From assembly GCA_016180925.1 (NCBI GenBank), contig JACPAH010000002.1, positions 1 to 59,818 of the forward strand: a stretch of DNA of 59,818 bases, given 5' to 3'. Below, one piece after another: positions 21,282 to 43,701 of the stretch; within the stretch, counting starts at the first letter, position 1; each line of letters starts with the position of its first letter. A program made the position numbers and the translations under genes. This DNA is from Candidatus Aenigmatarchaeota archaeon. GTDB taxonomy: Archaea; Aenigmatarchaeota; Aenigmatarchaeia; GW2011-AR5. The notes under the pieces were generated by a model. The model was not told the origin of the DNA. It saw only the letters and a program-made list of their open reading frames with translations, and ran no database searches.

Positions 21282-21369
21282 GGGCTGGTAGATCAACTGG
21301 AAGATCGCTTGCATGGCATATCTTGCGAGCCAAGGCAAGAGGCTACGGGTTCGAGTCCCGTCCAGTCCA
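21282..21369 (+). tRNA. tRNA-Ala(GGC) with an intron of about 15 nt (21319-21333) in the anticodon loop
   Basis: manual cloverleaf: acceptor GGGCTGG/CCAGTCC with G3:U70, D arm GATC-AACTGGAA-GATC, anticodon stem CTTGC/GCAAG enclosing 22 nt, variable AGGCT, T arm ACGGG-TTCGAGT-CCCGT, discriminator A; CCA not encoded. Confidence 0.8.
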
Positions 21370-23311: not shown

Positions 23312-23416
23312 TTCTTTATATTGTCTGCAATGGCATTATGAATAAATGGCGCTGAGATGATAAAGATGGCGGCAAATGCTATCTTTAATCATTTTGCCGA
23401 ATCTAATAGAAACATG

Positions 23417-23553
23417 GGCAGGTAGCTTAGCCTGGTAGAGCACCTGACTGATATCGCAGAAAGCGCAGCTTTCTGGGAGCTTGGAAAGAAGGAAACACTG
23501 AAGTTCTTTCCCAATCATCAGGAGGTCGAGAGTTCAAATCTCTTCCTGCCCAT
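23417..23553 (+). tRNA. tRNA-Ile(GAU) with a 63-nt anticodon-loop intron (23455-23517)
   Basis: manual cloverleaf: acceptor GGGCAGG/CCTGCCC, D arm GCTT-AGCCTGGTA-GAGC, anticodon stem CCTGA/TCAGG, loop CTGATA+A, variable AGGTC, T arm GAGAG-TTCAAAT-CTCTT, discriminator A. Confidence 0.85.
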
Positions 23554-26779: not shown

Positions 26780-27133
26780 ATGGCTGAAGAAAAGAAAAGC
26801 GCCGCGAAATCCGTGAAACAGGTGACGAAAAAGCCGAAGAAGGAAGAGAAGAAAGGGGAATTCAAGTTTGACGGCCAGCCTTACGAGACGATAAAGTTCG
26901 TCCTCATGACGGAAAAGGCCGTGCGCTTCATAGAGACGCAGAACAGGCTGATTTTCGTCGTGGACAGGAAAGCCGGAAAGGACGAAATAAAGGGAGCGGT
27001 GCAGGCGGCATTCCAGTCGAAGGTCAGCGACGTCAACGTGCTGATAGACCAGAAAGGACGGAAGAGGGCTTTCGTGAAGTTCGAAAAGCCCGGAGAGGCG
27101 GGGGAAATAGCAATACGCCTCGGAATCATATGA
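26780..27133 (+). CDS. rpl23: 50S ribosomal protein L23 (uL23) with a Lys-rich N-terminal extension
   Basis: ..LMTEKAVRFIE..N.LIFVVD..A.K.EIK.AV...F..KV..VN motif; ATG preceded by GGTGA (alternative GTG at 26771). Confidence 0.88.
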   Translation: MAEEKKSAAKSVKQVTKKPKKEEKKGEFKFDGQPYETIKFVLMTEKAVRFIETQNRLIFVVDRKAGKDEIKGAVQAAFQSKVSDVNVLIDQKGRKRAFVKFEKPGEAGEIAIRLGII

Positions 27134-27143
27134 TGGTGTTCAA

Positions 27144-27830
27144 ATGGGAAAAAATCTAAGGCAGCAGAGGAGAGGGAAGGCGAATCCCAGGTACACGTCG
27201 CCGGGCCACAGGTACATGGGAGACGTGAGCTACAGGAAGTTCTCTCTTGGCGAGGTCGTGGACATAGTCCATGCTCCAGGAAGAAGGTCGCCCCTGGCTG
27301 TCGTTGATTCCGGCGGGCAGAAGTCCCTTTTCCTTGCGACGGACGGGATGCAGGTGGGCCAGAAAATAGGACACGACTTCGCGCAGGGAAACCTGGTCGA
27401 ACTTTCCAATATACCGGAAGGCACGAAGATATGCAATATTGAGCTTAATCCCGGAGACGGCGGAAAATTATGCAGGGCGTCAGGCGCATTCGCGATGCTG
27501 GTGACGAAGGACGGCAACAGGTGCACCCTTCTTATGCCTTCGAAGAAGAAGAAGGTTGTTTCGGCAAGATGCCGCGCCACAGTCGGCACTGTAGCGTCTT
27601 CCGGACGGACAGAGAAGCCCTTCATGAAGGCGGGCACGAAGCACCATGCCATGATGGCTCTCGGAAGAGTGTACCCGCACACGGCCGGGGTGAGCATGAA
27701 CGCGGTGGACCATCCATTCGGCGGCCAGACAAGGCCCGGCAAGGTCAAGACCGTTTCGAGGAACATGCCGCCCGGTAAGAAGGTAGGAAGCATATCTCCT
27801 TCGAGGACGGGAAAGAAGAAGAGGAAGTAA
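27144..27830 (+). CDS. rpl2: 50S ribosomal protein L2 (uL2)
   Basis: ..GGKLCRASGAFA.., MNAVDHPFGG motifs. Confidence 0.93.
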   Translation: MGKNLRQQRRGKANPRYTSPGHRYMGDVSYRKFSLGEVVDIVHAPGRRSPLAVVDSGGQKSLFLATDGMQVGQKIGHDFAQGNLVELSNIPEGTKICNIELNPGDGGKLCRASGAFAMLVTKDGNRCTLLMPSKKKKVVSARCRATVGTVASSGRTEKPFMKAGTKHHAMMALGRVYPHTAGVSMNAVDHPFGGQTRPGKVKTVSRNMPPGKKVGSISPSRTGKKKRK

Positions 27831-27850
27831 AATGGCAAATGAAACAAATT

Positions 27851-27915
27851 TCATTTCAATTGCTCAAAGACCGAAGGTCTTTGGCATCTCAAAAGGGCAA
27901 AGCTCTTTTGCAGAT
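27851..27915. repeat. family double hairpin in the L2-S19 spacer (TCATTTCAATTGCT, CAAAGACC-gaa-GGTCTTTG, GCATCT, CAAAAGGGC-aaa-GCTCTTTTG, CAGAT)
   Basis: read directly; homologous flank-to-flank with 29047-29111. Confidence 0.7.
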
Positions 27916-27947
27916 TCAAAAACAGAAATCTGTGTGGTGTCTTAGAA

Positions 27948-28337
27948 ATGGCAAAGAAATTCATGCTGCGAGGCAAGACGCTTGAGGAGCTCAACGAGAT
28001 GAACCTCGAGGAGCTGTCAAAGCTCTTCACCGCGCGCGAAAGGCGCGCCCTCAAGAGGGGAATGCCGGAAATCCACAAGAAGCTCCTTGAAAAGATACGC
28101 AGCTCAAGGGGCAAGGACAAGCTCATAAGGACGCACGCAAGGGACATGGTAATCCTGCCGGAAATGGTGGGAGCCAAGCTCGGCATCCACAGCGGCGGCG
28201 AGTTCCAGATGGTAATAGTAAACGAGAGCATGATAGGGCACAGGCTCGGCGAGTTCGTGATGACACGAAAGCGCGTCAAGCACTCGTCGCCCGGGCTCGG
28301 AGCAACCAGGTCCAGCAAGTTCGTGCCTCTCAAGTGA
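27948..28337 (+). CDS. rps19: 30S ribosomal protein S19 (uS19)
   Basis: ..RRALKRG...H.KLL.K.R......IRTH.RDM.ILPEMVG..LGIH.G..F..V. Confidence 0.92.
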   Translation: MAKKFMLRGKTLEELNEMNLEELSKLFTARERRALKRGMPEIHKKLLEKIRSSRGKDKLIRTHARDMVILPEMVGAKLGIHSGGEFQMVIVNESMIGHRLGEFVMTRKRVKHSSPGLGATRSSKFVPLK

Positions 28338-28349
28338 TGTGCTCTTAAT

Positions 28350-28580
28350 ATGAACGACGTAAGAATCGAAAGAACCGGAAAGGATTCATTCAGGGTAGGC
28401 GACAGGGAAGTCAGGACGCTGAAAGTAGGCTCGGACATATTTCCCGTGAGGACATATGTCTTTGACATGAAAACAGAGGAGTATCTGGGAGAATTTTACG
28501 GAAGCCCGCTACCGTCATTTCCGGAGCTGGATATGGAGTTCAGAGAAGGCTTGATAAGAGTAGTATACGGAAGAGAGTGA
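28350..28580 (+). CDS. 76-aa protein of unknown function inserted between rps19 and rpl22
   Basis: ORF track; 12-nt and 4-nt spacers to its neighbours; no motif recognised. Confidence 0.5.
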   Translation: MNDVRIERTGKDSFRVGDREVRTLKVGSDIFPVRTYVFDMKTEEYLGEFYGSPLPSFPELDMEFREGLIRVVYGRE

Positions 28581-28584
28581 CAAT

Positions 28585-29031
28585 ATGCCATACACGTTCA
28601 ATCCCGAGGAAAAGCACGCGAAAGCGTACAGCACCCTCCCGATATCGGTCAAGTCGGCCGAGCTGTTGTGCAGGGTGATACGCAAGAAGCCTCTCAGGAG
28701 GGTGAAAAGGCTGCTTTCCGATCTGGAGTCGCGGAGAAGGAGCCTGGGAGGCAAGTACCACTCCAACGCAGTGTCCAACATCAAGAAGCTCGTGGAGAGC
28801 TGCGAAAAGAACGCCGAGTTCCTCGGCCTTGACAACGAGAGGCTCATGGTGCACGCGTCCGCCCACGAAGGCATGAGGATAAGGAGAAGGAGGAGAAAAG
28901 GGAAGTTCGGAAACAGGATGAAGCGGGCCAACATCGAGGTCATGCTGATAGAAAGCGGCAGGAGCGACAGGGTGCCCAGGGAGAAGCTCAAGAAACAGAT
29001 GGAAGCGAAGAAAGAGGATGAGAAGAAATGA
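28585..29031 (+). CDS. rpl22: 50S ribosomal protein L22 (uL22)
   Basis: cluster position and ..ISVKSAELLCRVIRKKPL..V..LL.. pattern. Confidence 0.9.
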   Translation: MPYTFNPEEKHAKAYSTLPISVKSAELLCRVIRKKPLRRVKRLLSDLESRRRSLGGKYHSNAVSNIKKLVESCEKNAEFLGLDNERLMVHASAHEGMRIRRRRRKGKFGNRMKRANIEVMLIESGRSDRVPREKLKKQMEAKKEDEKK

Positions 29032-29046
29032 GAAACGGAATAATAT

Positions 29047-29111
29047 TCCATTTCATTGCCCAGAGAACTCCTGTTCTCTGGCATCTCAAAAGAGACACCT
29101 CTTTTGCAGAT
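29047..29111. repeat. family double hairpin in the L22-S3 spacer (TCCATTTCATTGC, CCAGAGAAC-tcct-GTTCTCTGG, CATCT, CAAAAGAG-acac-CTCTTTTG, CAGAT)
   Basis: read directly; homologous to 27851-27915. Confidence 0.7.
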
Positions 29112-29143
29112 TTCGAAACGAAAGACTCGAAGGTGTTTCAAAA

Positions 29144-29812
29144 ATGAAGGAACGGATATTCATACAGAAAGCGAAGGAGCAGATAGAACTTGAGGAGTTC
29201 ATACGCTCCCAGTTCAGGCAGGCGAAGGTCGGGGACATCGAGATACAGCACACGCCTGTCGTCACCAGGATAGTGCTCTACACCACGACTCCCGGCCTCA
29301 TCATAGGCAGCGGCGGGGAGCGCATAAAGGAAATGGCGGAAACCATAAAGAGCAAATACAAGATAGACAACCCGCAGATAGATGTCCAGAAGATAGAGGA
29401 CGCCGACCTGGACCCGGTGATATCCGCTCAGTCCATAGCAAACCAGATAGAGGGCGGCGTCAACTACAAGAGGCTGGGAAATTATTATCTCGACAGGATA
29501 ATGCAGGCAGGGGCCACTGGATGCGAAATCATAATAACAGGAAAGCTTTCCGGCGAGAGGTCCAGAAGGGAGAGGTTCTACGCCGGATACCTGAAGAAGT
29601 GCGGCGAGCCCGCAAGAAGGGAGGTCATGAAGGGCTTCGCCCTCGCCAACCCCAAACTGGGGAATATAGGGATAACGGTGAAGATAATGACGACGCGCCC
29701 GGACAATATCATGAGCATAAGAGAGCCGCAGCCTCGCAACGAAGAGGCCAGACAACAGGAGAAGACGAAAGATGGCAATACTCAGGATGAAGAAAATAAG
29801 GGAAATGAGTGA
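29144..29812 (+). CDS. rps3: 30S ribosomal protein S3 (uS3)
   Basis: KH-domain GLIIGSGGERIKE and GCEIIITGKLSGERSR motifs; the ORF begins at 29018 but its first 42 codons are the hairpin spacer, so the start is set at MKERIF. Confidence 0.9.
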   Translation: MKERIFIQKAKEQIELEEFIRSQFRQAKVGDIEIQHTPVVTRIVLYTTTPGLIIGSGGERIKEMAETIKSKYKIDNPQIDVQKIEDADLDPVISAQSIANQIEGGVNYKRLGNYYLDRIMQAGATGCEIIITGKLSGERSRRERFYAGYLKKCGEPARREVMKGFALANPKLGNIGITVKIMTTRPDNIMSIREPQPRNEEARQQEKTKDGNTQDEENKGNE

Positions 29813-29996
29813 GAAAGAACTCGAAGAGAAGAGAGGGGAACTGATGCTGGAGAAGTCAAAGGAGACAGCGTCGGCAGAGATAGGCGGCACCGTGAAGAAT
29901 CCGGGCAGGATACGCGAGATAAAGAGGACAATTGCCAGGATGAAGACACACGCCTCCGCGAAAGCCGGCGAAAAGCCAAGAGGTGAGCGCAAGTAA
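29772..29996 (+). CDS. rpl29: 50S ribosomal protein L29 (uL29)
   Basis: MAILRMKKIREMSEKELEEK..EL N-terminus typical of L29; overlaps the S3 tail by 41 nt. Confidence 0.88.
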   Translation: MAILRMKKIREMSEKELEEKRGELMLEKSKETASAEIGGTVKNPGRIREIKRTIARMKTHASAKAGEKPRGERK

Positions 29997-30298
29997 TGGT
30001 ATGCCCCAAGTGCGGCCTCCCGGAGGAACTTTGCGTTTGCGAGGTCATAGCAAAGGAAGTCCAGAAAATAAAGATAACCTTCACGCAGAAAAGGTACGGA
30101 AAGTACGTTACCATCATAAGGGGCATCGACCCGAAAAAGATAGACCTGAAGGAGCTCATGAGGAAGCTGAAGTCGAAGCTTGCATGCGGAGGCACATACA
30201 AGAACGGCGAAATAGAGCTCCAGGGCGACCACAGGGAAAGGGTGAAGAAAATACTGATAGAGGAAGGCTTCCAGAAGGACATAATCGAGGTGGCATGA
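29996..30298 (+). CDS. translation initiation factor aSUI1 (eIF1 homologue)
   Basis: N-terminal CPKCG..C.C zinc motif plus the SUI1 fold pattern ..RYGK.VTII.GID....DLKEL.RKLKSKLACGGT...G.IELQGDHRE.V. Confidence 0.88.
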   Translation: MVCPKCGLPEELCVCEVIAKEVQKIKITFTQKRYGKYVTIIRGIDPKKIDLKELMRKLKSKLACGGTYKNGEIELQGDHRERVKKILIEEGFQKDIIEVA

Positions 30299-30573
30299 TG
30301 AGGACGCCCGAGAACATACTGATGCACGAGCTCATAGGGCTCAGGTGCGAGGTCGTGGCGTCCCTCAACAGGTCCCAGACCGGGATTTCCGGAAGCATCG
30401 TCGACGAGACGATGAAAAGCATCGTCATCGAGACCGCGGCCGGGAGGAAGACGGTGCTGAAAAGCGGCACGATATTCCGCGTCTCGTCGGGCTCATGGAA
30501 GGCCGACATCGACGGCAGCGCGATATTGGCAAGAAGCGAGGACAGGATAAAGAAAAGGATTTCAAGATGGTGA
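30295..30573 (+). CDS. rnp1: RNase P protein component 1 (Rpp29/Pop4 homologue)
   Basis: ..HELIGL...VV.S.N....GISG.IVDETMKSIVIET......V.K....F pattern; conserved position between SUI1 and S17; start at the ATGATG overlapping the SUI1 stop. Confidence 0.85.
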   Translation: MMRTPENILMHELIGLRCEVVASLNRSQTGISGSIVDETMKSIVIETAAGRKTVLKSGTIFRVSSGSWKADIDGSAILARSEDRIKKRISRW

Positions 30574-30580
30574 AGAAAAT

Positions 30581-30607
30581 TGCAAATGGAATACAATTCC
30601 ATTTGAT
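30581..30607. repeat. single family hairpin TG-CAAATGGAAT-aca-ATTCCATTTG-AT in the Rpp29-S17 spacer
   Basis: read directly. Confidence 0.5.
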
Positions 30608-30639
30608 TTTTGAAAAAGAAATTTAAGAGGTTTTCAGAA

Positions 30640-30972
30640 ATGAAAAAGAAAAAAGTCAATGATATCGGGCTCGAGGCCAAGGCTCCGGCCGGCGTCTGCG
30701 ACGGCGAGAAGTGCCCGTGGCACGGGCGGCTGAAGATACGCGGCAGGATATTCGAGGGAAAAATCGTCTCAAGCAAGCCGGCCAACACCGCCATAATCTC
30801 GTGGAACTACTACAAGTACGTGCCGAAATACGAGAGATACGAGAGGAGAAAGACGAAGATAGAGTCCCACAACCCGAAGTGCATAGACGCCAGGGCCGGC
30901 GACATGGTGAGGATAGGGGAATGCAGGCCGATTTCCAAGTCGAAAAGATTCGTGGTATTTGAAAAATTGTGA
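30640..30972 (+). CDS. rps17: 30S ribosomal protein S17 (uS17)
   Basis: ..C.D..CPWHG.LKIRGR.F.G.VVS.K...T..I....Y.YV.KYERYE.R..K..HNP.C; start set at the second ATG. Confidence 0.9.
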   Translation: MKKKKVNDIGLEAKAPAGVCDGEKCPWHGRLKIRGRIFEGKIVSSKPANTAIISWNYYKYVPKYERYERRKTKIESHNPKCIDARAGDMVRIGECRPISKSKRFVVFEKL

Positions 30973-31045
30973 TAGAAATGACAATAAATTTTTCGAATAT
31001 ACAGGATGAAAACATCCTGAAAATACCTGAGAAGGTGCCGGAAGA

Positions 31046-31447
31046 ATGAAAGCGATAACATCGAATATTGTGAAAGGAATACCCCTAGGGTCAAGGCTGG
31101 TATGCGCCGACAATTCCGGAGCAAAGGAGCTCGAGCTGATAGCCGTAAAAGGATACAAGGGAAGGCTGCGAAGGCTCCCGAAGGCCGGGGTGGGCGACGT
31201 CATAATATGCAGCGTCAAGAAGGGCAAGGAAAAGATAAGGAAGACTGTCGTTTATGCCGTCGTAGTAAGGCAGAAAAAGGAGTACATGCGCATGGACGGC
31301 TCGAGGGTGAAATTCGAGGACAACGCGGCGATACTCGTGAACCCCAAGACATTCGAGCCGCAGGGCACTGAAATAAGGACGGTCATAGCGAAGGAGGCAG
31401 TTGAAAGGTTCTCTGCCATAGGGAAGATAGCCAGCGTGGTGCTGTGA
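31046..31447 (+). CDS. rpl14: 50S ribosomal protein L14 (uL14)
   Basis: ..L.CADNSGAKEL..I.V.GY.G...R.P.AGVGD... Confidence 0.93.
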   Translation: MKAITSNIVKGIPLGSRLVCADNSGAKELELIAVKGYKGRLRRLPKAGVGDVIICSVKKGKEKIRKTVVYAVVVRQKKEYMRMDGSRVKFEDNAAILVNPKTFEPQGTEIRTVIAKEAVERFSAIGKIASVVL

Positions 31448-31452
31448 TAATC

Positions 31453-31848
31453 ATGAAGAAAAAATACTCTCCTGCATGGAAGAGCAGCGTCCAGAGAAGG
31501 AAGCAGAGGAAATACAGGTACAACGCCCCGCTCCATGCAAGGCACAAGATGCTGTCGGCACATCTCAGCAGGGAACTGCGCAAGGATTTCGGCTTCCGCT
31601 CAATGGCACTGAGGAAGGGCGATGAAGTGACAGTGATGAACGGCGAGAACAGGAAAATGAAGGGGAGCGTGACAAGGGTCGACATGAAGAGCCTGAAGGT
31701 TTATGTTGATGGAATAAAGAAAAGGAAGGTTTCGGGGCAGGAAGTCGAGATTCCCATCGACCCCAGCAACCTCAAGATAACGAAGCTCAACCTCGAGGAC
31801 CCGAAAAGGAAGAAGATTGCCGAGAGGAAAAAAGGAGCGGCCAAATAG
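31453..31848 (+). CDS. rpl24: 50S ribosomal protein L24 (uL24)
   Basis: KOW motif ..LRKGDEV.VM.G...G..G.V..VD; ATG chosen over the overlapping GTG at 31444. Confidence 0.88.
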   Translation: MKKKYSPAWKSSVQRRKQRKYRYNAPLHARHKMLSAHLSRELRKDFGFRSMALRKGDEVTVMNGENRKMKGSVTRVDMKSLKVYVDGIKKRKVSGQEVEIPIDPSNLKITKLNLEDPKRKKIAERKKGAAK

Positions 31849-31902
31849 AGGTGTTTGAATGGTTCAGCTAAAAATTCAAGACGAAAAGGGTTCCGCTTTA
31901 TG

Positions 31903-32016
31903 TGCAACGGCATTGAAAACCTCTGTCTTTAGACAGAGAATGAAACACAATGCCGTTGACATGACAAAGATGTTAGAAACCGGCATCTTTAGATGCCGGA
32001 GATATAAACATCTTTG
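31903..32016. repeat. enlarged family unit: two long outer stems (CAACGGCATTG/CAATGCCGTTG; CAAAGATGTT/AACATCTTTG), each enclosing an inner hairpin, joined by ACATGA
   Basis: read directly; lies in the 198-nt L24-S4e spacer. Confidence 0.65.
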
Positions 32017-32046
32017 CTCATTTTTAGCTTTGCATGAGGTGCTAGA

Positions 32047-32742
32047 ATGACTCAGCTAAAAAGGCTAAAGGCGCCAAGCTTCTGGCCTGTGGAGAGAAAG
32101 AACAGGAAATACATAGTCCCGCCCGTGCCGGGCGCCCATTCCGTCCAGAACTCCATGCCGCTCGGGGTCGTCCTGAGGGACGTGCTCAAATGCGCAAAGA
32201 CGATGAAGGAGGCAAGATACATACTCAACAGGGGGCTTGTCAGCATAGACGGCGCCAGGAAGAAGGACAAGAACTTCGGCGCCGGCGTCATGGACGTCCT
32301 GAAGGTCGGTGACGACTCTTACAGGATAATACCCGGCAAGGCCGGATTCAGGTTCCAGAAAGTGAGCGGCGGCGAGGCCACGTTCAAGCTCATGAGGGTA
32401 AGGAACAAGAAAACCCTGCGAAAGGGCAGGACGCAGATAAACTTCCATGACGGCAGGAACATGATAGTCAGCAAAGACGAATTCAGGACCGGCGACGTCG
32501 TCGTCTTCGACTTCCAGAAGAAGGAGATAAAGCAAAAAATAAAATTCGAGGAAGGCTCGACCATAGTCGTCATGAAGGGACGCAGCCGCGGGGCCGTCGG
32601 GAAGATAGACGGGATAAAAACAACGAAAGGCTCCAAGCCGAACGAGGTCACGGTGAGCATAGGCTCCGGCAGCATAGTGCTCCCGAAGGATTACGTCTTC
32701 GTAATAGGGCCCGACAAGCCCGTCATCACGATGGGTGAGTAA
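32047..32742 (+). CDS. rps4e: 30S ribosomal protein S4e (eS4)
   Basis: LKRL.AP..WP..RK..K....P.PG.H....S.PL..VLRD.L. Confidence 0.92.
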   Translation: MTQLKRLKAPSFWPVERKNRKYIVPPVPGAHSVQNSMPLGVVLRDVLKCAKTMKEARYILNRGLVSIDGARKKDKNFGAGVMDVLKVGDDSYRIIPGKAGFRFQKVSGGEATFKLMRVRNKKTLRKGRTQINFHDGRNMIVSKDEFRTGDVVVFDFQKKEIKQKIKFEEGSTIVVMKGRSRGAVGKIDGIKTTKGSKPNEVTVSIGSGSIVLPKDYVFVIGPDKPVITMGE

Positions 32743-32745
32743 GGA

Positions 32746-33240
32746 ATGAACAAAATGATCGATATAAGGATAGAGAAAATAACGCTGAACATAGGCTGCG
32801 GAACGGACACTCCGGTGAACGTCGCCAGGCAGGTCCTCGAGAGGATAACGGGGAAAAAGGTCGTGATAACGAGAACCAAGAAGAGGACGACCTTCAATGT
32901 CCCGAAGGACAAGGACATAGGCTGCAAGACGACGATACGCAGCGGCTCCGAGGAGTTCCTCAGAAGGATGCTGGATGCAGTGGACAACAGGCTGAAGGAG
33001 AACAGCTTCGACAGCACGGGAAACTTCTCCTTCGGCATAAAGGGCTACATAGACATACCGCAGATGGAATACGACCCCAAGATAGGCGTACTGGGGCTGG
33101 ACGTATGCGTGACGCTGGAGAGGCCCGGCTACAGGGTGAAGAGGAAGAAGCTGTCGAAGAAACTAGGGAAATCCCACGTCATAAAAAAGCCTGACGCGGT
33201 TGACTACATGAGGAACAAATTCGGGGTTGCAATAACGTGA
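32746..33240 (+). CDS. rpl5: 50S ribosomal protein L5 (uL5)
   Basis: ..I.IEKI.LN.G.G......A..VLE.ITG.K.V.T...K....F. Confidence 0.92.
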
Positions 33241-33250
33241 CGGTGATGGA

Positions 33251-33412
33251 ATGGTCAGAACGAAAGCGATAAAAAGAAAGTATGGAAAAGGCTCAAAGAA
33301 GTGCGTGAAGTGTGGGAGCATGAAGGGCATAATACGCAAGTATAACCTCGCATACTGCAGGCGGTGCTTCAGGGAGGTCGCGCCGCAAATCGGGTTCAGG
33401 AAATACAGGTGA
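33251..33412 (+). CDS. rps14: 30S ribosomal protein S14 (uS14, zinc type; 53 aa, below the ORF-track cut-off)
   Basis: hand translation [53 protein letters not shown] with the C..C...C..C zinc motif. Confidence 0.88.
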
Positions 33413-33418
33413 CGAAAA

Positions 33419-33778
33419 ATGGCAAAGATAATGGTCGTAGAGGATGAGGAACGATATATGGCGCAGATAGCGGAGATAGCGGAACGTGCAGGACACAGCG
33501 TTGTGAAATGTTATTATGGAGGAAGTGCGGCTGATGTTTACGACAGAGAAGTCCCGGATATGGTAGTCACTGATTTTTCATGCGGAATTACAACAGGCGT
33601 TGATGTAACAAGGCAAATAAGAGAAAGAGGAAGTGAAGTTCCTGTTTATATCCAGTCCATGCGGTCTATACCGGGTGGGCTCGTTGCAAGAAGCGGTGCA
33701 AACGGTTTCATCTTAAAGGGTAATCTTGATGCAGAACTCCCCCCTGTAATAAGAAAGCATTTTGGTGGTAGAGAATGA
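33419..33778 (+). CDS. stand-alone CheY-like response-regulator receiver domain
   Basis: KIMVVEDEE acidic pocket, MVVTDFS phospho-acceptor Asp context, ..VYIQSMRS.. Ser/Thr position, ANGFILKG Lys position; ATGA overlap with the rps8 start. Confidence 0.75.
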   Translation: MAKIMVVEDEERYMAQIAEIAERAGHSVVKCYYGGSAADVYDREVPDMVVTDFSCGITTGVDVTRQIRERGSEVPVYIQSMRSIPGGLVARSGANGFILKGNLDAELPPVIRKHFGGRE

Positions 33779-34161
33779 GGCATGACATACTTTCGGACGT
33801 GCTGTACGTGATGAACAATGCGGAAAAGATAGGCAGGGCTACCTGCACCATTCCGGCGTCGAACCTGGTGAAGAACGTCCTGAAAGTGCTGCAGAAGGAG
33901 AACTACATAGGGAGCTTCGAGTTTGCCGACGACGGCAAGTCCGGCCATTTTGCTGTCGAGCTCATAGGGAAGATAAACTTCTCGAGGTCCATAAAGCCCA
34001 GGTTCTTCGTCAAGAAGGACGACTACGAGAAGTGGGAGAAGAGGTACCTCCCTGCAAAGGGCTACGGCGTCATGATAGTCTCGACGTCGAAGGGCGTGAT
34101 GAGCCAGAAGGAGGCGGAAAAGCTCGGCATAGGAGGCCGCCTGCTCGGGTGTGTTTATTAA
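33775..34161 (+). CDS. rps8: 30S ribosomal protein S8 (uS8)
   Basis: D.LSD.L..MNNAE..G.......PAS.L....L.VL.KE.YI..FE. Confidence 0.92.
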   Translation: MRHDILSDVLYVMNNAEKIGRATCTIPASNLVKNVLKVLQKENYIGSFEFADDGKSGHFAVELIGKINFSRSIKPRFFVKKDDYEKWEKRYLPAKGYGVMIVSTSKGVMSQKEAEKLGIGGRLLGCVY

Positions 34162-34167
34162 ATCAAA

Positions 34168-34737
34168 ATGGAGAGACGAATAAAAATGGAGTACACAGCG
34201 CAGATTCCGGACGGAGTACAGGTTTCAGTCAGCGGAACCGCTGTCTCGGTGAAGGGGCCGCGCGGCGGTCTGGACAGGGATTTCGGCGACCCCAGGTACG
34301 ACACGGAGCTGGTGATGTCGGTTTCCGGGGACAAGTTCTCCGTGAAGACCGATTCCAAGAAGAGGAAGATATTCGCAATGGCAGGCACCATAGCGGGCCA
34401 CGTCAAGAATATGTGCATTGGCGTCACGAAGGGATACATGTACACGATGAAAATAGTCTACACCCACTTCCCGATAACGCTGTCCCTGAAGGACGGGCAT
34501 GTCGAGGTGAAGAACTTCCTCAGCGAGAAGGGCGTGAGGAGGGGGAAGATAATGGGCGACTGCGAAGTGAAGTTCGACAAGGAGTCCGTGACAGTGACGG
34601 GAAACGACCTGGAGAACGTCAGCCAGACGGCCGCCAACATAGAGCAGTCCTGCAGGCTGTCAGGGCGGGACAGGAGAATCTTCATAGACGGCATATATGT
34701 GTCCGGAAAGATGCTGGCCACGGGCGAGAAAATATAG
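34168..34737 (+). CDS. rpl6: 50S ribosomal protein L6 (uL6)
   Basis: ..IP.GV.V.V.G..V.VKGP.G.L.R.F.... pattern; alternative start at 34186. Confidence 0.9.
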   Translation: MERRIKMEYTAQIPDGVQVSVSGTAVSVKGPRGGLDRDFGDPRYDTELVMSVSGDKFSVKTDSKKRKIFAMAGTIAGHVKNMCIGVTKGYMYTMKIVYTHFPITLSLKDGHVEVKNFLSEKGVRRGKIMGDCEVKFDKESVTVTGNDLENVSQTAANIEQSCRLSGRDRRIFIDGIYVSGKMLATGEKI

Positions 34738-34747
34738 GGTGATTATA

Positions 34748-35230
34748 ATGAGCAAAAGATTCAAGTCGCAGGATTATTTCAGGTATCCTCGCCTCGGCAT
34801 CAAATGGAGAAGGCCGAAAGGCCTCCAGAGCAAGCTCCGGCTGAAGATAGGCGGCGCCGGAAAGCTCGTTGCTGTAGGATACGGCACCAGCAGAGAGAGG
34901 AGGAATACGATAAACGGCGTCAGGTATGCCGTGGTTTCAAATGCGGAGCAGCTCGGACAGACCGATTCCAGGACCGTCATAATATCATCCGCGACCGGCT
35001 CAAAGAAGGCCCTTGAGATATCCGAGAAGGCTGCGGGCCTCGGGATAAAGATACTCAACATGAAAAAAGTCAGGAAGTCGCGCGCCATACTGAAGAAGCT
35101 CCGGGACAAAAAGACGGCGCCTTCAAAGGACGCGGGGAAAAAGGAGGACGCCAAAAAGAAAGAAGAGGCCCTCCCAGAAGAAGAAAAGCCGCGCGAGAAG
35201 ACAAAAGCGCCTGCGGAGGCAAAGAAATAA
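34748..35230 (+). CDS. rpl32e: 50S ribosomal protein L32e (eL32) with a Lys/Glu-rich C-terminal tail
   Basis: ..F..QD..RY.RLG.KWRRP.G.QSK.R... motif; start moved to MSKRFKSQ. Confidence 0.88.
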   Translation: MSKRFKSQDYFRYPRLGIKWRRPKGLQSKLRLKIGGAGKLVAVGYGTSRERRNTINGVRYAVVSNAEQLGQTDSRTVIISSATGSKKALEISEKAAGLGIKILNMKKVRKSRAILKKLRDKKTAPSKDAGKKEDAKKKEEALPEEEKPREKTKAPAEAKK

Positions 35231-35394
35231 TGTTCATAGTGTTCGGAAGCGGAAAATGCCCGCTGTGCGGGGACTTCGGGACTGAAATCTCGGAAGAAAT
35301 ATACAAATGCGAGAAGTGCCTTGTCGCGTTCAACAACTTCGGCATATCCTCGCAGTCCGGGGCAAGGCAGGCGGAAACGAAATACTGGAACTGA
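35230..35394 (+). CDS. 54-aa zinc-ribbon-like protein inserted between rpl32e and rpl19e (below the ORF-track cut-off)
   Basis: hand translation MFIVFGSGKCPLCGDFGTEISEEIYKCEKCLVAFNNFGISSQSGARQAETKYWN; CPLC..CEKC; TAATG overlap upstream, stop 1 nt before the rpl19e ATG. Confidence 0.45.
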   Translation: MFIVFGSGKCPLCGDFGTEISEEIYKCEKCLVAFNNFGISSQSGARQAETKYWN

Positions 35395-35395
35395 G

Positions 35396-35878
35396 ATGTG
35401 GAACGACATGGACCTGAAATCACAGAAAAACATGGCATCAAAAGTCATGAAATGCGGGAAAAGCAGGGTATGGATAGACCCGGCCAGGATAGCCGACGCC
35501 TCGGACGCCATAACACTTGCCGACATAAGGAAGCTGATATCCGACGGCGTCATAAAAAAGCTTCCTGAAAAGGGGCAGGGCAGTTTCAGGGCGAAGAAGA
35601 CGGCGTCCCAGAAGAAGAAAGGCAGGCGGAAGGGCAGGGGCTCCAGAAAAGGTTCCGCGAAGACCAGGCTCCCAAAGAAAAAGACATGGATGAAGAAGAT
35701 ACGGGCCATCAGAAAACTCATAAAGCACCTGAAGAGCGAAGGAAAAATCGACAACAGGAGCTACAGGGATGTGTATGTCAAATCGAAGAGCGGCTTTTTC
35801 AGGAGCAAGTCGCACGTCATGATTTATCTTGAAAGGAACAACCTGCTGAAAGACCCGGGCAAGAAAGAGGAGAAATAA
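35396..35878 (+). CDS. rpl19e: 50S ribosomal protein L19e (eL19)
   Basis: DLKSQK..ASKVMKCGKSRVWIDP motif; alternative start at 35408. Confidence 0.9.
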   Translation: MWNDMDLKSQKNMASKVMKCGKSRVWIDPARIADASDAITLADIRKLISDGVIKKLPEKGQGSFRAKKTASQKKKGRRKGRGSRKGSAKTRLPKKKTWMKKIRAIRKLIKHLKSEGKIDNRSYRDVYVKSKSGFFRSKSHVMIYLERNNLLKDPGKKEEK

Positions 35879-36463
35879 ATGAACCAATACATAATGTTCA
35901 GGCGCAGAAGGGAGAAAAAGACCGACTACAGGCAGAGGCTGGCCCTCCTGAAGTCGAAGAAGACCAGGATGATAATAAGGCGCTCCCTGAAAGGGGTAAG
36001 GATACAGTTCACCAACTCCGGCCCTTCGGGCGATGTCGTCGTTGTCGAGAGGACATCGAAGAACCTTTCGGAGCTGGGGTGGAGCTGCCACAGCGCGAAT
36101 CTTCCGGCATCCTATCTCACGGGATTTCTGGCCGGCGCTGAAGCCCTCTCGAAAGGCGTCAAGGATGCCATAGTCGACATAGGGCTCCAGAATTCAGCCA
36201 GGTCATCCGGCCTTTATTGCGCCGCCGCCGGTGCCAGGGACGCAGGGGTCGCCGTAAACATCGGAGAGGAAGCGATACCGCCGAAGGACAGGATAAGCGG
36301 GAAGCACATAGCAGATTACGCGGCGAAGATAAAAAACAGCCCCGCATACCAGAGGCAATTCTCGTCATATTTAAAGAAAGGAATCAATCCTGAAAAAATA
36401 AACGAGATATTCAGCCACGTAAAGACCGAAATCGCCGCCAAATACGGCATAAAGGAAAGATGA
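35879..36463 (+). CDS. rpl18: 50S ribosomal protein L18 (uL18)
   Basis: ..FRRRREKKTDYRQRL.LL.S...R...R.S pattern. Confidence 0.9.
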   Translation: MNQYIMFRRRREKKTDYRQRLALLKSKKTRMIIRRSLKGVRIQFTNSGPSGDVVVVERTSKNLSELGWSCHSANLPASYLTGFLAGAEALSKGVKDAIVDIGLQNSARSSGLYCAAAGARDAGVAVNIGEEAIPPKDRISGKHIADYAAKIKNSPAYQRQFSSYLKKGINPEKINEIFSHVKTEIAAKYGIKER

Positions 36464-37978: not shown

Positions 37979-39496
37979 GTGAAAATGAATTTTGTTTCGA
38001 TTGCGTCAAGGCTTCCGGGCATAGAGGAGCCCAAGGTCCATCTCAATTTCAAGGCGAGGCTTAAGTGGACCGTTATAATACTCCTGCTTTTCATAATACT
38101 CTCGCACATAACTCTTTTCGGCGTGTCGCCAGAGGAGCGCCAGAGGTTCCAGTTCTTCGAGCTCATACTTGGCTCCTCCATCGGCACTCTGATGACGCTG
38201 GGCATAGGGCCTATCGTGACGGCATCCATAATACTCCAGCTTCTGGTCGGTTCCAAGATAATACCGTGGAACCTCAGGGACCCGGAAGGCAAGAGGAAGT
38301 TCCAGTCGGCGCAAAAACTCATGGTCATATTCTTCTGCGTGTTCGAGGCCTTCGCTTATGTGAGCTTCGGCGCGATAAAATCGTCTTCACCCGACTTCAC
38401 ACTGGTGCTTATAGCGCAGATAGCCTTCGGCGGCTACCTCGTGCTGCTCATGGACGAGGTGATTTCCAAGTGGGGCATAGGCTCCGGCGTCTCGCTCTTC
38501 ATAGCGGAGAACGTGTCGAGGACGATATTCGTCCGCGCATTGAATCCCCTGACACCGCTTGGCGAAACCATACCGTCCGGCCTCATACCGCAGTCCATCT
38601 CGTTCATAGGGCTGGGCGACATGTTCCAGGCCGCGATAGCATGGGTTCCGATAATCGCAACCGTGATAGTATTCCTGACTGTCGTCTACATACAGGCCAT
38701 GAAGGTGGAGATACCGCTCGCGTTCGGCAGCATACGCGGCTTCAGCCGGAGATGGCCCCTTAACATGATATACACGAGCAACATGCCCGTCATTCTTATC
38801 GCCGCTTTGCTTGCAAACCTCCAGCTCGTGGGCACGATGGTTGCAAGGCAGACCGAGGAAGGCCTCCGCTGCGGATTCCTCGGATGCTTCGACAGCAACA
38901 ACATCGCCATAAGCGGGATAGTGCAGTTCTTCCAGCCTGTCGCCTCGCTTCCGGTGCAGATATTCTTCCTCACGATACTTTCCATAGTGTTCATAACGGC
39001 TTTCGCTTCGTTCTACTTCAAGTTCAGGCACGGCCCCAGGATGGTACTGGCGGCAGGGACTGCCAGCGTCATGCTGGCTATTCTCATATCATCAGCTACG
39101 GTAGGCATGCCGACATGGGATGAATTCCTCCGCGCCGGCGTTTATTCTCTCCTGCTCATAGCCGGCTCTGTCATGTTCTCCGTTTTCTGGGTGTCGACAA
39201 GCGGAATGGACGCCAGGAGCGTCGCCGAGCAGATAGAAGGCCTCGGCATGCAGATACCTGGATTCCGCCGCGACCCAAGGATAATCGAGCAGGTCCTCAA
39301 CCGCTACATACCGACGCTTGCCATAATATCCGGCCTGTTCATCGGCACGCTGGCGGCAGTGGCCGACTTCACCGGCGCCCTCGGCACCGGCACAGGAATA
39401 CTGCTCATGGTGATGATAATCTACAATCTCTACGAGAATATAGCCAACAGGTACATGGAAGACATGCACCCGGCCATGAGGAAGTTCTTCAGGTAG
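37979..39496 (+). CDS. secY: preprotein translocase subunit SecY
   Basis: 10-TM pattern; ..LGIGPIVTASIILQLL.. plug/TM2 region; closes the cluster as usual. Confidence 0.93.
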   Translation: MKMNFVSIASRLPGIEEPKVHLNFKARLKWTVIILLLFIILSHITLFGVSPEERQRFQFFELILGSSIGTLMTLGIGPIVTASIILQLLVGSKIIPWNLRDPEGKRKFQSAQKLMVIFFCVFEAFAYVSFGAIKSSSPDFTLVLIAQIAFGGYLVLLMDEVISKWGIGSGVSLFIAENVSRTIFVRALNPLTPLGETIPSGLIPQSISFIGLGDMFQAAIAWVPIIATVIVFLTVVYIQAMKVEIPLAFGSIRGFSRRWPLNMIYTSNMPVILIAALLANLQLVGTMVARQTEEGLRCGFLGCFDSNNIAISGIVQFFQPVASLPVQIFFLTILSIVFITAFASFYFKFRHGPRMVLAAGTASVMLAILISSATVGMPTWDEFLRAGVYSLLLIAGSVMFSVFWVSTSGMDARSVAEQIEGLGMQIPGFRRDPRIIEQVLNRYIPTLAIISGLFIGTLAAVADFTGALGTGTGILLMVMIIYNLYENIANRYMEDMHPAMRKFFR

Positions 39497-41956: not shown

Positions 41957-42487
41957 TCATGCGACCACCACTATTGCTATCATGAACGACACGACGCTCA
42001 TGACGTCTCCCAGGGTAGTTATATAGGGCCCCATGATGTTGTTCGGGTCGTGCCCTTTCCTGAACACCCAGAACGTCGTATACACTGTCAACGGCGCCAT
42101 GAGTATCGAAACCATGCCTGCGATGACTGAAATGAAAATTATCTTCATATTTTCAATCCCGAAGAACCAGCTGCTGGCGAGATAGGCGAAGATGCCCAGT
42201 ATGACGCTTGATATCATTATAAGGGAAGCCGTGGCCAGCATGTTGCTCTTGGCCGTCCTGTCGTTCATCTTCGGCCTGACGACACCAAGGAAAAGGCCTG
42301 AGCTGAGGCGTGCCGCCATGGAGCCGCCAAGGCTGCCGCGCATCTCGAGGAAGCCCGGTATAAGTATGAACAGGCCTGGTATGAGATATATCTGGTTTGT
42401 CATGGAAGCGAGAACCACGCCGGCGAGCAGCCCGCCCGACACCGATATGAGCTCCACGGCGAGGATTTCCCTGAAGTCATTTCCCAT
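41957..42487 (-). CDS. MgtE-type divalent-cation transporter membrane domain protein
   Basis: ..LIPGFLEMRGSLGGSMAARLSSGL..; start moved to MGNDFREIL because the ORF's 5' extension runs into the tRNA-Gly gene. Confidence 0.75.
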   Translation of the reverse strand: MGNDFREILAVELISVSGGLLAGVVLASMTNQIYLIPGLFILIPGFLEMRGSLGGSMAARLSSGLFLGVVRPKMNDRTAKSNMLATASLIMISSVILGIFAYLASSWFFGIENMKIIFISVIAGMVSILMAPLTVYTTFWVFRKGHDPNNIMGPYITTLGDVMSVVSFMIAIVVVA

Positions 42488-42553
42488 TATAAGATATTGG
42501 TTTGGGGTTAAAAAAGAGTTTTTTATAAGCTTATACAGCAATTTCTCAATAAA

Positions 42554-42684
42554 GCGCCTGTAGTCTAATGGTAGCTTGACGCTAAAGACGTCGTGCCAGT
42601 AAAGGACCACAGCCTTCCAAGCTGTTGACTGTAGCTAATAATTTGGCTCAGGCAGAAATCCGGGTTCGAATCCCGGCGGGCGCA
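42554..42684 (+). tRNA. tRNA-Gly(UCC) interrupted at three positions (about 42574-42585 D loop/stem, 42591-42608 at position 26/27, about 42626-42654 variable region)
   Basis: manual fold: acceptor GCGCCTG/CGGGCGC, GTCT-AATGGTA-[12 nt]-AGAC, G, [18 nt], ACAGC-CTTCCAA-GCTGT, [about 29 nt], GAAAT, CCGGG-TTCGAAT-CCCGG, discriminator A; TATA-like TTTTTATAAGC 24-34 nt upstream. Confidence 0.55.
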
Positions 42685-42687
42685 TTG

Positions 42688-43701
42688 ATGACGTGCAAAA
42701 AATATCTTCTGATAGCTGTCTTCCTGGCGGCTGCATCCGGATGTGTTTCTGAAAGCACCAGCATACCTACTGCACCTGATGCAGGAGAGGCGATTGCGGA
42801 AACGTTTTCTTATTCGGCAGCCGGTTACCCTGAAATGAGCGAAATTTCCATGGAGGCGGCAGGCTATCCGCTGCTTCTTGAAAATCCCATAATGGCACTT
42901 CCGATAAAATACTACATAAACGAAAGCACTATAAACTACAGCTACGCGGTCTTTTACCCTGAAATGGTTAACGACACCATAGAAGGCCTGAAGGAATGGG
43001 AGCGTGCCACGGGCGGTGCCGTGAGATTTGCAGAAGCCAGAGAGATGTCCGATGCCAGTGTCGTAATAAACTTCGTCAAGTTCTACAACATAACGTCCGT
43101 GACGTCCAGCGAATACGGCCTGTCGTGGACGAGCCAGCTCGGCGAAGGCGGACCCACGTCCATCGTCTCATACAGAGGGTTCAACCTCATAAACAGCTCG
43201 GTGATGTTCATCTTCCCGAACAGGAATGACAGGTGCGAGACGGTGCAGACAGCGGAGCACGAGTTCGGGCACGCGACAGGCCTCGACCACGACGGCATCC
43301 CGGACAGCATAATGTTTTCAAGCGCCAGAGGCACATGCCTGCAGAAATTCAAGCAGCCCACAACGGATGCCATAAAAAGCCTTTACAGTAACGCCAAACC
43401 GGACCTCAGGTTCGCCTATGTAAGGACGTCAGAGTCAAACGGGACTTTCGACATCGACATGAAAATCGAGAACGTCGGCCTCGCATATTCCGGCAGCGTG
43501 AGCCTGAAGCTCTACGACGGCTCGTTCTTCAGATGGGAAAGCACGACAAGGCCGCTGGGCCCGGGCGGCTCCGAAGTGTTCCTGATGAAAGGACTCAGAA
43601 TGTCGCCCGCGAACGGTTCCATCCAGGCTTTCATCGATATAGAATCGTCCCAGGAAGAGATATCCAGGGAAGACAACGAGATAACACTGAGAAAACGGTA
43701 A
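42688..43701 (+). CDS. secreted lipoprotein-like zinc metalloprotease (matrixin/M10-like) with a C-terminal beta-sandwich-like domain
   Basis: leader ..LIAVFLAAASGC; HEFGHATGLDHD = HExxHxxGxxH; start set after the tRNA. Confidence 0.75.
   Translation: MTCKKYLLIAVFLAAASGCVSESTSIPTAPDAGEAIAETFSYSAAGYPEMSEISMEAAGYPLLLENPIMALPIKYYINESTINYSYAVFYPEMVNDTIEGLKEWERATGGAVRFAEAREMSDASVVINFVKFYNITSVTSSEYGLSWTSQLGEGGPTSIVSYRGFNLINSSVMFIFPNRNDRCETVQTAEHEFGHATGLDHDGIPDSIMFSSARGTCLQKFKQPTTDAIKSLYSNAKPDLRFAYVRTSESNGTFDIDMKIENVGLAYSGSVSLKLYDGSFFRWESTTRPLGPGGSEVFLMKGLRMSPANGSIQAFIDIESSQEEISREDNEITLRKR

Follow-up and report, generated by a model that had tools for sequence, protein, structure and literature searches.

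How many times is a single archaeal tRNA gene interrupted, and how would the interruptions be removed? The question is raised by a gene for tRNA-Gly(UCC), 131 nucleotides (nt) long, at positions 42554-42684 of a 59,818-nt stretch of DNA from a Candidatus Aenigmatarchaeota archaeon, which as a whole I will call the window. A first-pass annotation, made from the sequence alone, proposed that three segments at non-canonical positions must be removed from the gene to leave a mature tRNA of 72 nt. The comparisons described below lead to a different count. The locus is likely to be a functional tRNA-Gly(UCC) gene of a DPANN archaeon with introns at positions 20/21 and 45/46, which would be excised by the splicing endonuclease EndA through bulge-helix-bulge (BHB) motifs.

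The region 42554-42684 is a genuine tRNA-Gly(UCC) gene. The Rfam family RF00005 matches it on the plus strand from end to end, covering model positions 1-71 and scoring 48.7 bits where the gathering threshold is 29, and the anticodon UCC lies at 42616-42618. Its acceptor stem (GCGCCUG/CGGGCGC), T arm (CCGGG-UUCGAAU-CCCGG) and anticodon arm (ACAGC-CUUCCAA-GCUGU) match the description in the first-pass annotation. The exons and introns, with the grounds for each, are as follows:

42554..42572, + strand: exon 1, tRNA positions 1-20 (Rfam alignment; D arm identical to that of locus L077)
42573..42602, + strand: intron 1, 30 nt, in the D loop at position 20/21, AGCUUGACGCUAAAGACGUCGUGCCAGUAA (orthologue comparison, BHB score)
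42603..42627, + strand: exon 2, positions 21-45 (Rfam alignment, orthologues, fold of the spliced product)
42628..42657, + strand: intron 2, 30 nt, in the variable region at position 45/46, ACUGUAGCUAAUAAUUUGGCUCAGGCAGAA (orthologue comparison, BHB score)
42658..42684, + strand: exon 3, positions 46-73 (sequence, Rfam alignment, fold of the spliced product)

Written as RNA with the introns in brackets, the gene reads GCGCCUG UA GUCU AAUGGU[AGCUUGACGCUAAAGACGUCGUGCCAGUAA]A GGAC C ACAGC CUUCCAA GCUGU UG[ACUGUAGCUAAUAAUUUGGCUCAGGCAGAA]AU CCGGG UUCGAAU CCCGG CGGGCGC A. Exon 1 holds the 5' strand of the acceptor stem (GCGCCUG), U8 and A9, the 5' strand of the D stem (GUCU) and most of the D loop (AAUGGU). 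Exon 2 begins with A21 and continues through the 3' strand of the D stem (GGAC), C26 and the anticodon arm to U44 and G45. Exon 3 supplies A46 and U48, the T arm, the 3' strand of the acceptor stem and the discriminator base A73, with no encoded CCA.

Joining the three exons gives a cloverleaf of 71 nt with a predicted folding energy of -28.6 kcal/mol, which ARAGORN recognizes as tRNA-Gly(tcc) and which contains the conserved tRNA nucleotides U8, A14, G18, G19, A21, U33 and the T-loop sequence UUCGAAU. Given the unspliced gene and its intron option, the same program makes a wrong call, tRNA-Asn, and over the whole window it reports zero tRNAs. In both the Rfam alignment and the minimum free energy (MFE) fold of the precursor, GUCU pairs with GGAC as the D stem and the D loop holds a single insert; the MFE fold also contains, within the last insert, the hairpin AGCUAA-UAAU-UUGGCU that had been noticed in the first pass. 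When the whole window was searched with Rfam in a sensitive mode, three tRNAs were all that came up, with no further tRNA-Gly among them and no group I or group II intron. A self-splicing intron of either group was considered and rejected, since the inserts are 30 nt each, as compared to the hundreds of nucleotides in a ribozyme core, which is usually placed in the anticodon loop.

The number of introns was judged from orthologues of tRNA-Gly(UCC). These were drawn from a set of related loci, some of them in metagenome-assembled genomes (MAGs) labelled Candidatus Aenigmatarchaeota, that are denoted here by L-numbers, and from one metagenome scan. Several of the orthologues (L007, L081/L085, L083, L084/L089 and L087) have no insert at all. 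That of L007, 71 nt long, reads GCGCUUG UA GUCU AACGGCA GGAC C ACAGC CUUCCAA GCUGU UGAU CCGGG UUCGAAU CCCGG CGGGCGC A. In all nine types of orthologue the 3' strand of the D stem is GGAC, followed by C26 in most of them and by A26 in L002 and L083; their D loops are 7 or 8 nt in length and their variable regions 4 nt (UGAU, UGAC, UUAU, AUAU or GUAU). Set against these, the gene in the window has exactly 30 nt too many in the D loop and exactly 30 nt too many in the variable region. The D-stem strand GGAC and the 30-nt gap indicate that the first two inserts proposed in the first pass are a single D-loop intron; once this is removed, the D arm (GUCUAAUGGUAGGAC) equals that of L077. By this comparison the gene has two introns of 30 nt, not three, and the mature tRNA is predicted to be 71 nt long, not 72. 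The general claim of several interruptions at non-canonical positions thus stands, at 20/21 and 45/46, while the number three gives way to two by orthologues, Rfam alignment and MFE fold alike.

The remaining orthologues carry inserts of their own. L001, which is syntenic and the closest, has 15 nt at position 29/30 (AUCUCGGGAUGGCAU, between ACA and GC) together with the variable-region insert of the window, its D arm being intact. L082/L086/L088 have a 16-nt insert at 29/30, in L008 the 29/30 insert measures 19 nt and is accompanied by a long one in the anticodon loop, and L002, L003, L046 and L077 have inserts of 39 to 118 nt at the canonical position 37/38. After splicing, the tRNA of the window differs from that of L001 at 2 of 71 nucleotides, both in the D loop, and the variable-region inserts of the two are 100% identical (73 of 73 nt with the flanking exon counted). 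The presence of introns is therefore polymorphic among relatives: the D-loop intron is absent from L001 and the variable-region intron from all orthologues except L001. When a metagenome was scanned for orthologues that carry an insert in the variable region, nine matches came up, all with a variable region of 4 nt, and, L001 excepted, neither the rest of the window nor any of 89 related loci contained a copy of either intron. An Rfam scan of seven further Aenigmarchaeota loci found one tRNA, with no intron, too few to give an intron frequency.

A BHB motif consists of two 3-nt bulges on either side of a helix of 4 base pairs, with a splice site in each bulge, and may be strict (hBHBh') or relaxed (hBH or HBh'). 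The junctions of the two introns were assessed by a scoring rule applied to every pair of boundaries, which takes in, on both strands, four nucleotides of the central helix, a bulge of 3 nt with the cut behind the second of them, and a flanking helix. The rule agrees with the known arrangement at position 37/38, where the first two anticodon nucleotides sit in the central helix (PMC4090602). As a control, for the canonical intron of L002 at 37/38 it picked the correct register (score 12, central helix 4/4), and it also picked the correct registers of the 29/30 introns of L001, L082 and L008 (scores 11, 14 and 13, respectively). The inner helices of these three introns, uc/ga, ugc/gca and ucau/auga, vary in sequence while pairing is kept, which is evidence, at the level of the lineage, for selection on BHB geometry.

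Both introns of the window score 12 by this rule, each in exactly one of the registers that would yield the identical spliced product. The D-loop intron, for which there are three such registers, would be cut after nt 19 and nt 49 of the gene. Its motif is of the hBHBh' form, with an outer helix h of GUCU/GGAC (the D stem itself), a central helix H of AAUG/CAGU (3/4), bulges GUA and AAA, each cut after the second nucleotide, and an inner helix h' of GC/GC followed by UGACG/CGUCG (2+5 base pairs, bp). The variable-region intron would be cut after nt 74 and nt 104, a register sharply better than its neighbors. Its central helix is CUGU/GCAG (4/4), where CUGU belongs to the 3' strand of the anticodon stem, its bulges are UGA and AAA, cut in the same way, and its inner helix is CUG/CAG followed by AGCUAA/UUGGCU (3+6 bp). 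Since the outer helix is reduced to a single G.U pair, this motif is of the relaxed, HBh'-like kind. A score of 12 is reached by 0.25% of all boundary pairs in the precursor RNA, and when the introns were shuffled it was reached by 2.6% of shuffles for the D-loop intron and 0.5% for the variable-region intron.

What sort of organism would splice such a precursor? The divergent neighbor of the tRNA gene (41957-42487, minus strand) encodes a protein of the MgtE family, whose closest relatives in species-representative genomes lie in Candidatus Aenigmatarchaeota MAGs, 86% identical in L001 and 84% in L002. The coding DNA around the tRNA gene is 81.6% identical to that of L001 and 80.7% identical to that of L002. 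Judged by these relatives, the host is a DPANN archaeon of the Candidatus Aenigmatarchaeota and not a member of the Thermoproteales, the order to which the first-pass annotation had mainly pointed; its companion suggestion of an archaeon whose endonuclease has broad specificity is plausible, in view of an epsilon2-type EndA encoded by MAGs of the phylum. That enzyme was found by tblastn with a query that approximates the M. jannaschii EndA, and the matches in L018, L020 and L024 were checked against PDB and Pfam. These three MAGs encode an EndA of 395-398 amino acids (aa), and a fourth gene came from a look-up of protein clusters:

L018 14235-15422, - strand: EndA, about 396 aa (tblastn)
L020 12239-13435, - strand: EndA, about 396 aa (tblastn, Pfam)
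L024 12667-13857, - strand: EndA, about 396 aa (tblastn, Pfam, alignment to PDB 4FZ2)
L090 3001-4191, + strand: EndA, about 396 aa (protein-cluster look-up)

The protein of L024 aligns over its full length with the epsilon2 EndA of ARMAN-2 (PDB 4FZ2; E = 6e-110), retaining the catalytic residues Y236, H251 and K282 and also K161 of the specificity loop, and Pfam finds both the catalytic and the N-terminal EndA domains in the proteins of L024 and L020. Proteins of about 395 aa that are 60-98% identical to the EndA of L024 make up at least 120 clusters, many of them labelled Aenigmarchaeota. The epsilon2 type, known in a 2018 survey only from ARMAN-1, ARMAN-2 and Mancarchaeum (PMC5829648), and shown in vitro to cut BHB motifs of the strict as well as the relaxed kind (PMC3239211), would on this evidence appear to be widespread in Aenigmarchaeota. 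In L018, L020 and L024 two paired MgtE genes are found close to the one for EndA, and the cluster member in L090 likewise adjoins such a pair. By analogy with these relatives, I infer that the genome of the window has an epsilon2-type EndA too.

Expression would begin at the gene's own promoter, of which there is a candidate just upstream:

42510..42529, + strand: putative archaeal promoter (read from the sequence; the element aligns at the syntenic L002 locus)

The candidate consists of an A-rich stretch, aaaaaagagt, resembling a transcription factor B recognition element (BRE), followed by a TATA-like box, tttttataag (42520-42529), centered about 30 nt upstream of the first nucleotide of the tRNA. 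A promoter of this TATA/BRE type would give a precursor of about 131 nt containing both 30-nt introns. EndA would then cleave each bulge behind its second nucleotide, the three exons would be joined by an RtcB-type ligase, and addition of CCA would complete the 71-nt tRNA. Because the anticodon stem lends one strand to its central helix and its outer helix is nearly absent, the relaxed motif of the variable region would need an enzyme of broad specificity, most likely an EndA of the three-unit epsilon2 type, if that is the type this genome possesses. Relaxed motifs, like introns at non-canonical positions, call for an EndA of the (alpha-beta)2 or epsilon2 type or for a variant with an extra loop.

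A number of observations weigh against so simple an account. The conformers that contain the BHB motifs are not the MFE fold: the precursor is predicted to reach -48.9 kcal/mol, as compared to -43.6 kcal/mol with the D-loop BHB and -45.3 kcal/mol with the variable-region central helix, so that they lie 3.6 to 5.3 kcal/mol above it. The central helix of the D-loop motif contains an A.G mismatch, and a competing D-loop BHB, with cuts after nt 22 and nt 46, has a better helix and a conformer at -46.2 kcal/mol. The variable-region motif requires that the anticodon stem be opened, and its outer helix is the lone G.U pair. Neither intron has covariation support of its own, since the variable-region intron of L001 is identical to that of the window and the D-loop intron was found in no other locus. 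Finally, the search with the approximate M. jannaschii query found no EndA gene within the 59.8 kb of the window, and the two EndA clusters that were traced to their encoding contigs both belong to other MAGs, none being tied to the genome of the window, L001 or L002. Beyond the window, its MgtE-like protein turned up, in identical form, on just one contig, of 1.2 kb, from Logan (SRR12113429).

The competing D-loop motif is the basis of the alternative that survives best, namely that the D-loop intron is a core of 24 nt (42576-42599), whose removal would leave a D loop of 13 nt (AAUGGUAGCUAAA). The register is attractive as regards the junction: its central helix, GGUA/UGCC, is paired at all four positions, its inner helix, UGACG/CGUCG, has 5 bp, its score is 13, and its conformer is the more stable of the two. 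Its outer helix, however, is a single pair. The D loops of standard tRNAs have 7 to 11 nt, and those of all the orthologues have 7 or 8, to be compared with the 13 proposed. The exact gap of 30 nt and the base-for-base agreement with the D arm of L077 would both be left as unexplained coincidences. I regard the 24-nt intron as improbable.

It could also be that the gene is a disrupted pseudogene, its inserts being scars of insertion or rearrangement, and that no functional tRNA is made from it. ARAGORN is blind to the locus, the BHB conformers are suboptimal folds, and the syntenic locus in L002 has been rearranged, its replacement allele being preceded by 16 nt left over from an earlier 5' end. 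Against this, the exons are intact over all 71 nt and differ from L001 only at the two positions, and the features that specify tRNA-Gly identity (C2:G71, G3:C70, C35, C36 and A73) are present. The candidate promoter is kept and conserved with L002. Each insert occupies a site where introns are known and has its BHB in the proper register, the variable-region intron shows no change from L001 at a background identity of 82%, and there is no other tRNA-Gly in the window. The gene is very probably functional, and the pseudogene is a quite improbable explanation.

The three introns of the first-pass annotation (12 nt at 21/22, 18 nt at 26/27 and about 29 nt from the variable region, for a mature tRNA of 72 nt whose D stem would be GUCU/AGAC, followed by G26) give a product that is in itself unobjectionable. 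It folds as a clean cloverleaf at -30.5 kcal/mol, as against -28.6 for the two-intron product, all four bases of AGAC make Watson-Crick pairs with GUCU, and the product is accepted by ARAGORN as tRNA-Gly(tcc). Since both products fold as cloverleaves, only the comparative and the BHB evidence can discriminate between them. Within 3 nt of the proposed boundaries of the two extra introns there is no BHB in any register, the best scores being 9 for the 12-nt insert and 6 for the 18-nt insert, as compared to 12 for the 30-nt intron. The 18-nt insert would have its 5' splice site (nt 36-38) buried in the stem of a stable hairpin, with a probability of being paired above 0.99 and of being unpaired of at most 0.01. 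The product would have A22, unlike every orthologue, and G26, where most have C and L002 and L083 have A. A complement of the 4-nt GUCU is moreover expected to occur about 0.8 times by chance in a 30-nt insert, by my own estimate, and the model costs one splicing event more than the data require. Three inserts each with its own BHB, as would be expected of a three-intron tRNA, were not found, and the orthologues show a single D-loop insertion. An alternative fold with fewer interruptions, a possibility that the first-pass annotation had itself raised, does exist and is the better supported; three introns are extremely unlikely.

Equally hard to credit is the retention of the inserts as structural expansions, for although the variable-region hairpin of the MFE fold is self-contained and projects like the long extra arm of a class II tRNA, leaving the cloverleaf helices intact, tRNA-Gly (anticodon UCC) is of class I and not among the isoacceptors that have such an arm (Leu, Ser and, in bacteria, Tyr), every orthologue has a variable region of 4 nt with no conserved long arm, 34 nt exceeds known extra arms, a D loop of 37 nt would disrupt the contacts of G18 and G19 with the T loop, and the BHB geometry at both inserts favors excision.

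With two introns at 20/21 and 45/46 thus the preferred structure, the same tRNA can be compared in genomes about 82% identical in DNA. The window has introns at 20/21 and 45/46, L001 at 29/30 and 45/46, and L002 at 37/38 in a replaced allele. Different sets of introns in such close relatives point to rapid turnover. The 45/46 intron is at the same time identical at 30 of 30 positions in the window and L001, an outcome expected with a frequency of about 0.002 (0.816^30) at the 81.6% background, and such identity suggests either a constraint beyond that imposed by the BHB or a recent exchange. The L002 locus (1149-1024, minus strand) retains 16 nt of a 5' end of the window type (GCGCCTGTAGTTTAAT), directly before a complete and different tRNA-Gly(UCC) allele that has the acceptor stem GCGGUCG/CGACCGC and a 39-nt intron at 37/38. 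This arrangement looks like a gene replacement or the scar of an integration at the tRNA gene.

The introns themselves offer faint clues to their origin. The strings GTAGCT (42571-76 and 42631-36) and TTGAC (42576-80 and 42625-29) do each occur twice, as had been pointed out in the first pass, where they were listed as shared by the first and last inserts. As a sign that the introns are related they had to be discarded, since the score of the local alignment of one intron with the other was reached by 2560 of 5000 shuffles, a chance level. The 5' arm of the 45/46 intron, CUGUAG-CUAAU (42629-42639), matches nt 5-16 of the tRNA (CUGUAGUCUAAU, 42558-42569) with one base deleted. This match was reached by 45 of 5000 shuffles, which, after five comparisons, is a weak signal. 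The resemblance would allow the intron hairpin to pair, through its 3' arm, with the 5' region of the tRNA, and the likeness may be due to chance, to a trace of partial duplication or to an alternative fold of the precursor. One may go further and suppose that the locus, together with those of L001 and L002, records very recent gain and loss of introns in a lineage with epsilon2 EndA, where non-canonical introns arise when pieces of a tRNA gene are inserted, or the gene is partially duplicated, at tRNA loci prone to recombination, a scheme that on present indications is doubtful. Alternatively, the conserved 45/46 intron may have a function of its own after excision.

Introns like these are known elsewhere. 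Positions 20/21, 29/30 and 45/46 are among the recurrent non-canonical sites of archaeal tRNA introns (PMC4090602), and tRNAs with multiple introns are established in the Thermoproteales, with up to three introns (PMC4033280), and in ARMAN-2 (PMC3239211). The Thermoproteales (Pyrobaculum, Thermofilum, Caldivirga), whose study by Sugahara (2007/2008) and Fujishima (2010) is considered here through the summaries in PMC4033280 and PMC4090602, resemble the window in having short introns spliced by protein, more than one per tRNA, at sites 20/21, 29/30 and 45/46, with strict or relaxed BHB junctions and with positions that vary between close relatives. They differ in that the host of the window is a DPANN archaeon of the mesophile type, not a crenarchaeon, and in that their EndA is an (alpha-beta)2 enzyme with the crenarchaeal loop, whereas that of the window is likely to be of the epsilon2 type. 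Furthermore, in contrast to the intron transposition described in the Thermoproteales, no copy of an intron was found in other tRNAs when the three tRNAs of the window were compared.

ARMAN-2 (Candidatus Micrarchaeum acidiphilum; Fujishima 2011, PMC3239211; Hirata 2012, PDB 4FZ2) is closer, as a DPANN host with non-canonical and double introns in its tRNAs and with an EndA that has a full-length homologue encoded in the phylum of the window. It belongs to another phylum, however, and its described introns are in the T loop (53/54 and 59/60), unlike those of the window in the D loop and variable region. Raised tRNA disruption has been reported in several DPANN lineages, namely Pacearchaeota, Woesearchaeota, Nanohaloarchaea and Mancarchaeum (Kaneta 2018, PMC5829648). 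In these genomes an EndA with extra loops goes along with non-canonical and multiple introns, and standard predictors overlook some of the tRNAs, a general pattern into which the window would fit; that survey did not include any Aenigmarchaeota. In the literature that I searched there is no account of tRNA introns or of the type of EndA specifically for Aenigmarchaeota. As the intron positions are known, as are tRNAs with several introns, the locus is a further case of a known phenomenon, and its interest is modest.

The other two tRNA genes of the window are also longer than expected, and both were missed by ARAGORN:

21282-21369, + strand: 88 nt, tRNA-Ala(GGC) from its G3:U70 pair and anticodon GGC, with a 15-nt intron
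23416-23552, + strand: 137 nt, apparent tRNA-Ile(GAU), with a 63-nt insert in the anticodon loop that contains two hairpins

In the tRNA-Ala the only good central helix is UGGC/GCCA (4/4), with cuts at 38/39 rather than at the canonical 37/38, and A32 is unpaired, so that there is no stacking of the outer helix. In the tRNA-Ile the scorer found no strict BHB at 37/38 for the insert (central helix 2/4), which may represent one intron or two.

Some further features of the window and of a related locus may be recorded here:

42688-43701, + strand: matrixin-like metalloprotease (HEFGHATGLDH; Pfam Peptidase_M10) with a lipoprotein-type N-terminus (LAAASGC)
27001-36000: strongly positive AT skew (0.30-0.33) and GC skew (0.16-0.19), upstream of a SecY-like open reading frame at 37979-39496
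L020 2281-2432, + strand: Rfam RT-16 RNA (91.8 bits) in an Aenigmarchaeota MAG

The start codon (ATG) of the metalloprotease lies 4 nt past the 3' end of the tRNA-Gly gene, and the same arrangement is found in L002. So tight a spacing in both places suggests either that the two genes are co-transcribed or that a promoter lies inside the tRNA gene. The skewed region looks like a long cluster of genes on one strand, possibly a ribosomal-protein operon, which is what usually precedes secY.

The practical lesson of the window is that a standard finder of bacterial and archaeal tRNAs is blind to all three of its tRNA genes, and genomes of this lineage will seem poor in tRNAs unless tools aware of introns are applied. 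As for the biology, tRNA genes with multiple, non-canonical introns now extend to Aenigmarchaeota, and the apparent spread of epsilon2 EndA in the same phylum would fit the co-evolution of tRNA gene disruption with the specificity of the endonuclease. The differing sets of introns in one orthologous tRNA provide material for the question of how tRNA introns are gained and lost in archaea.

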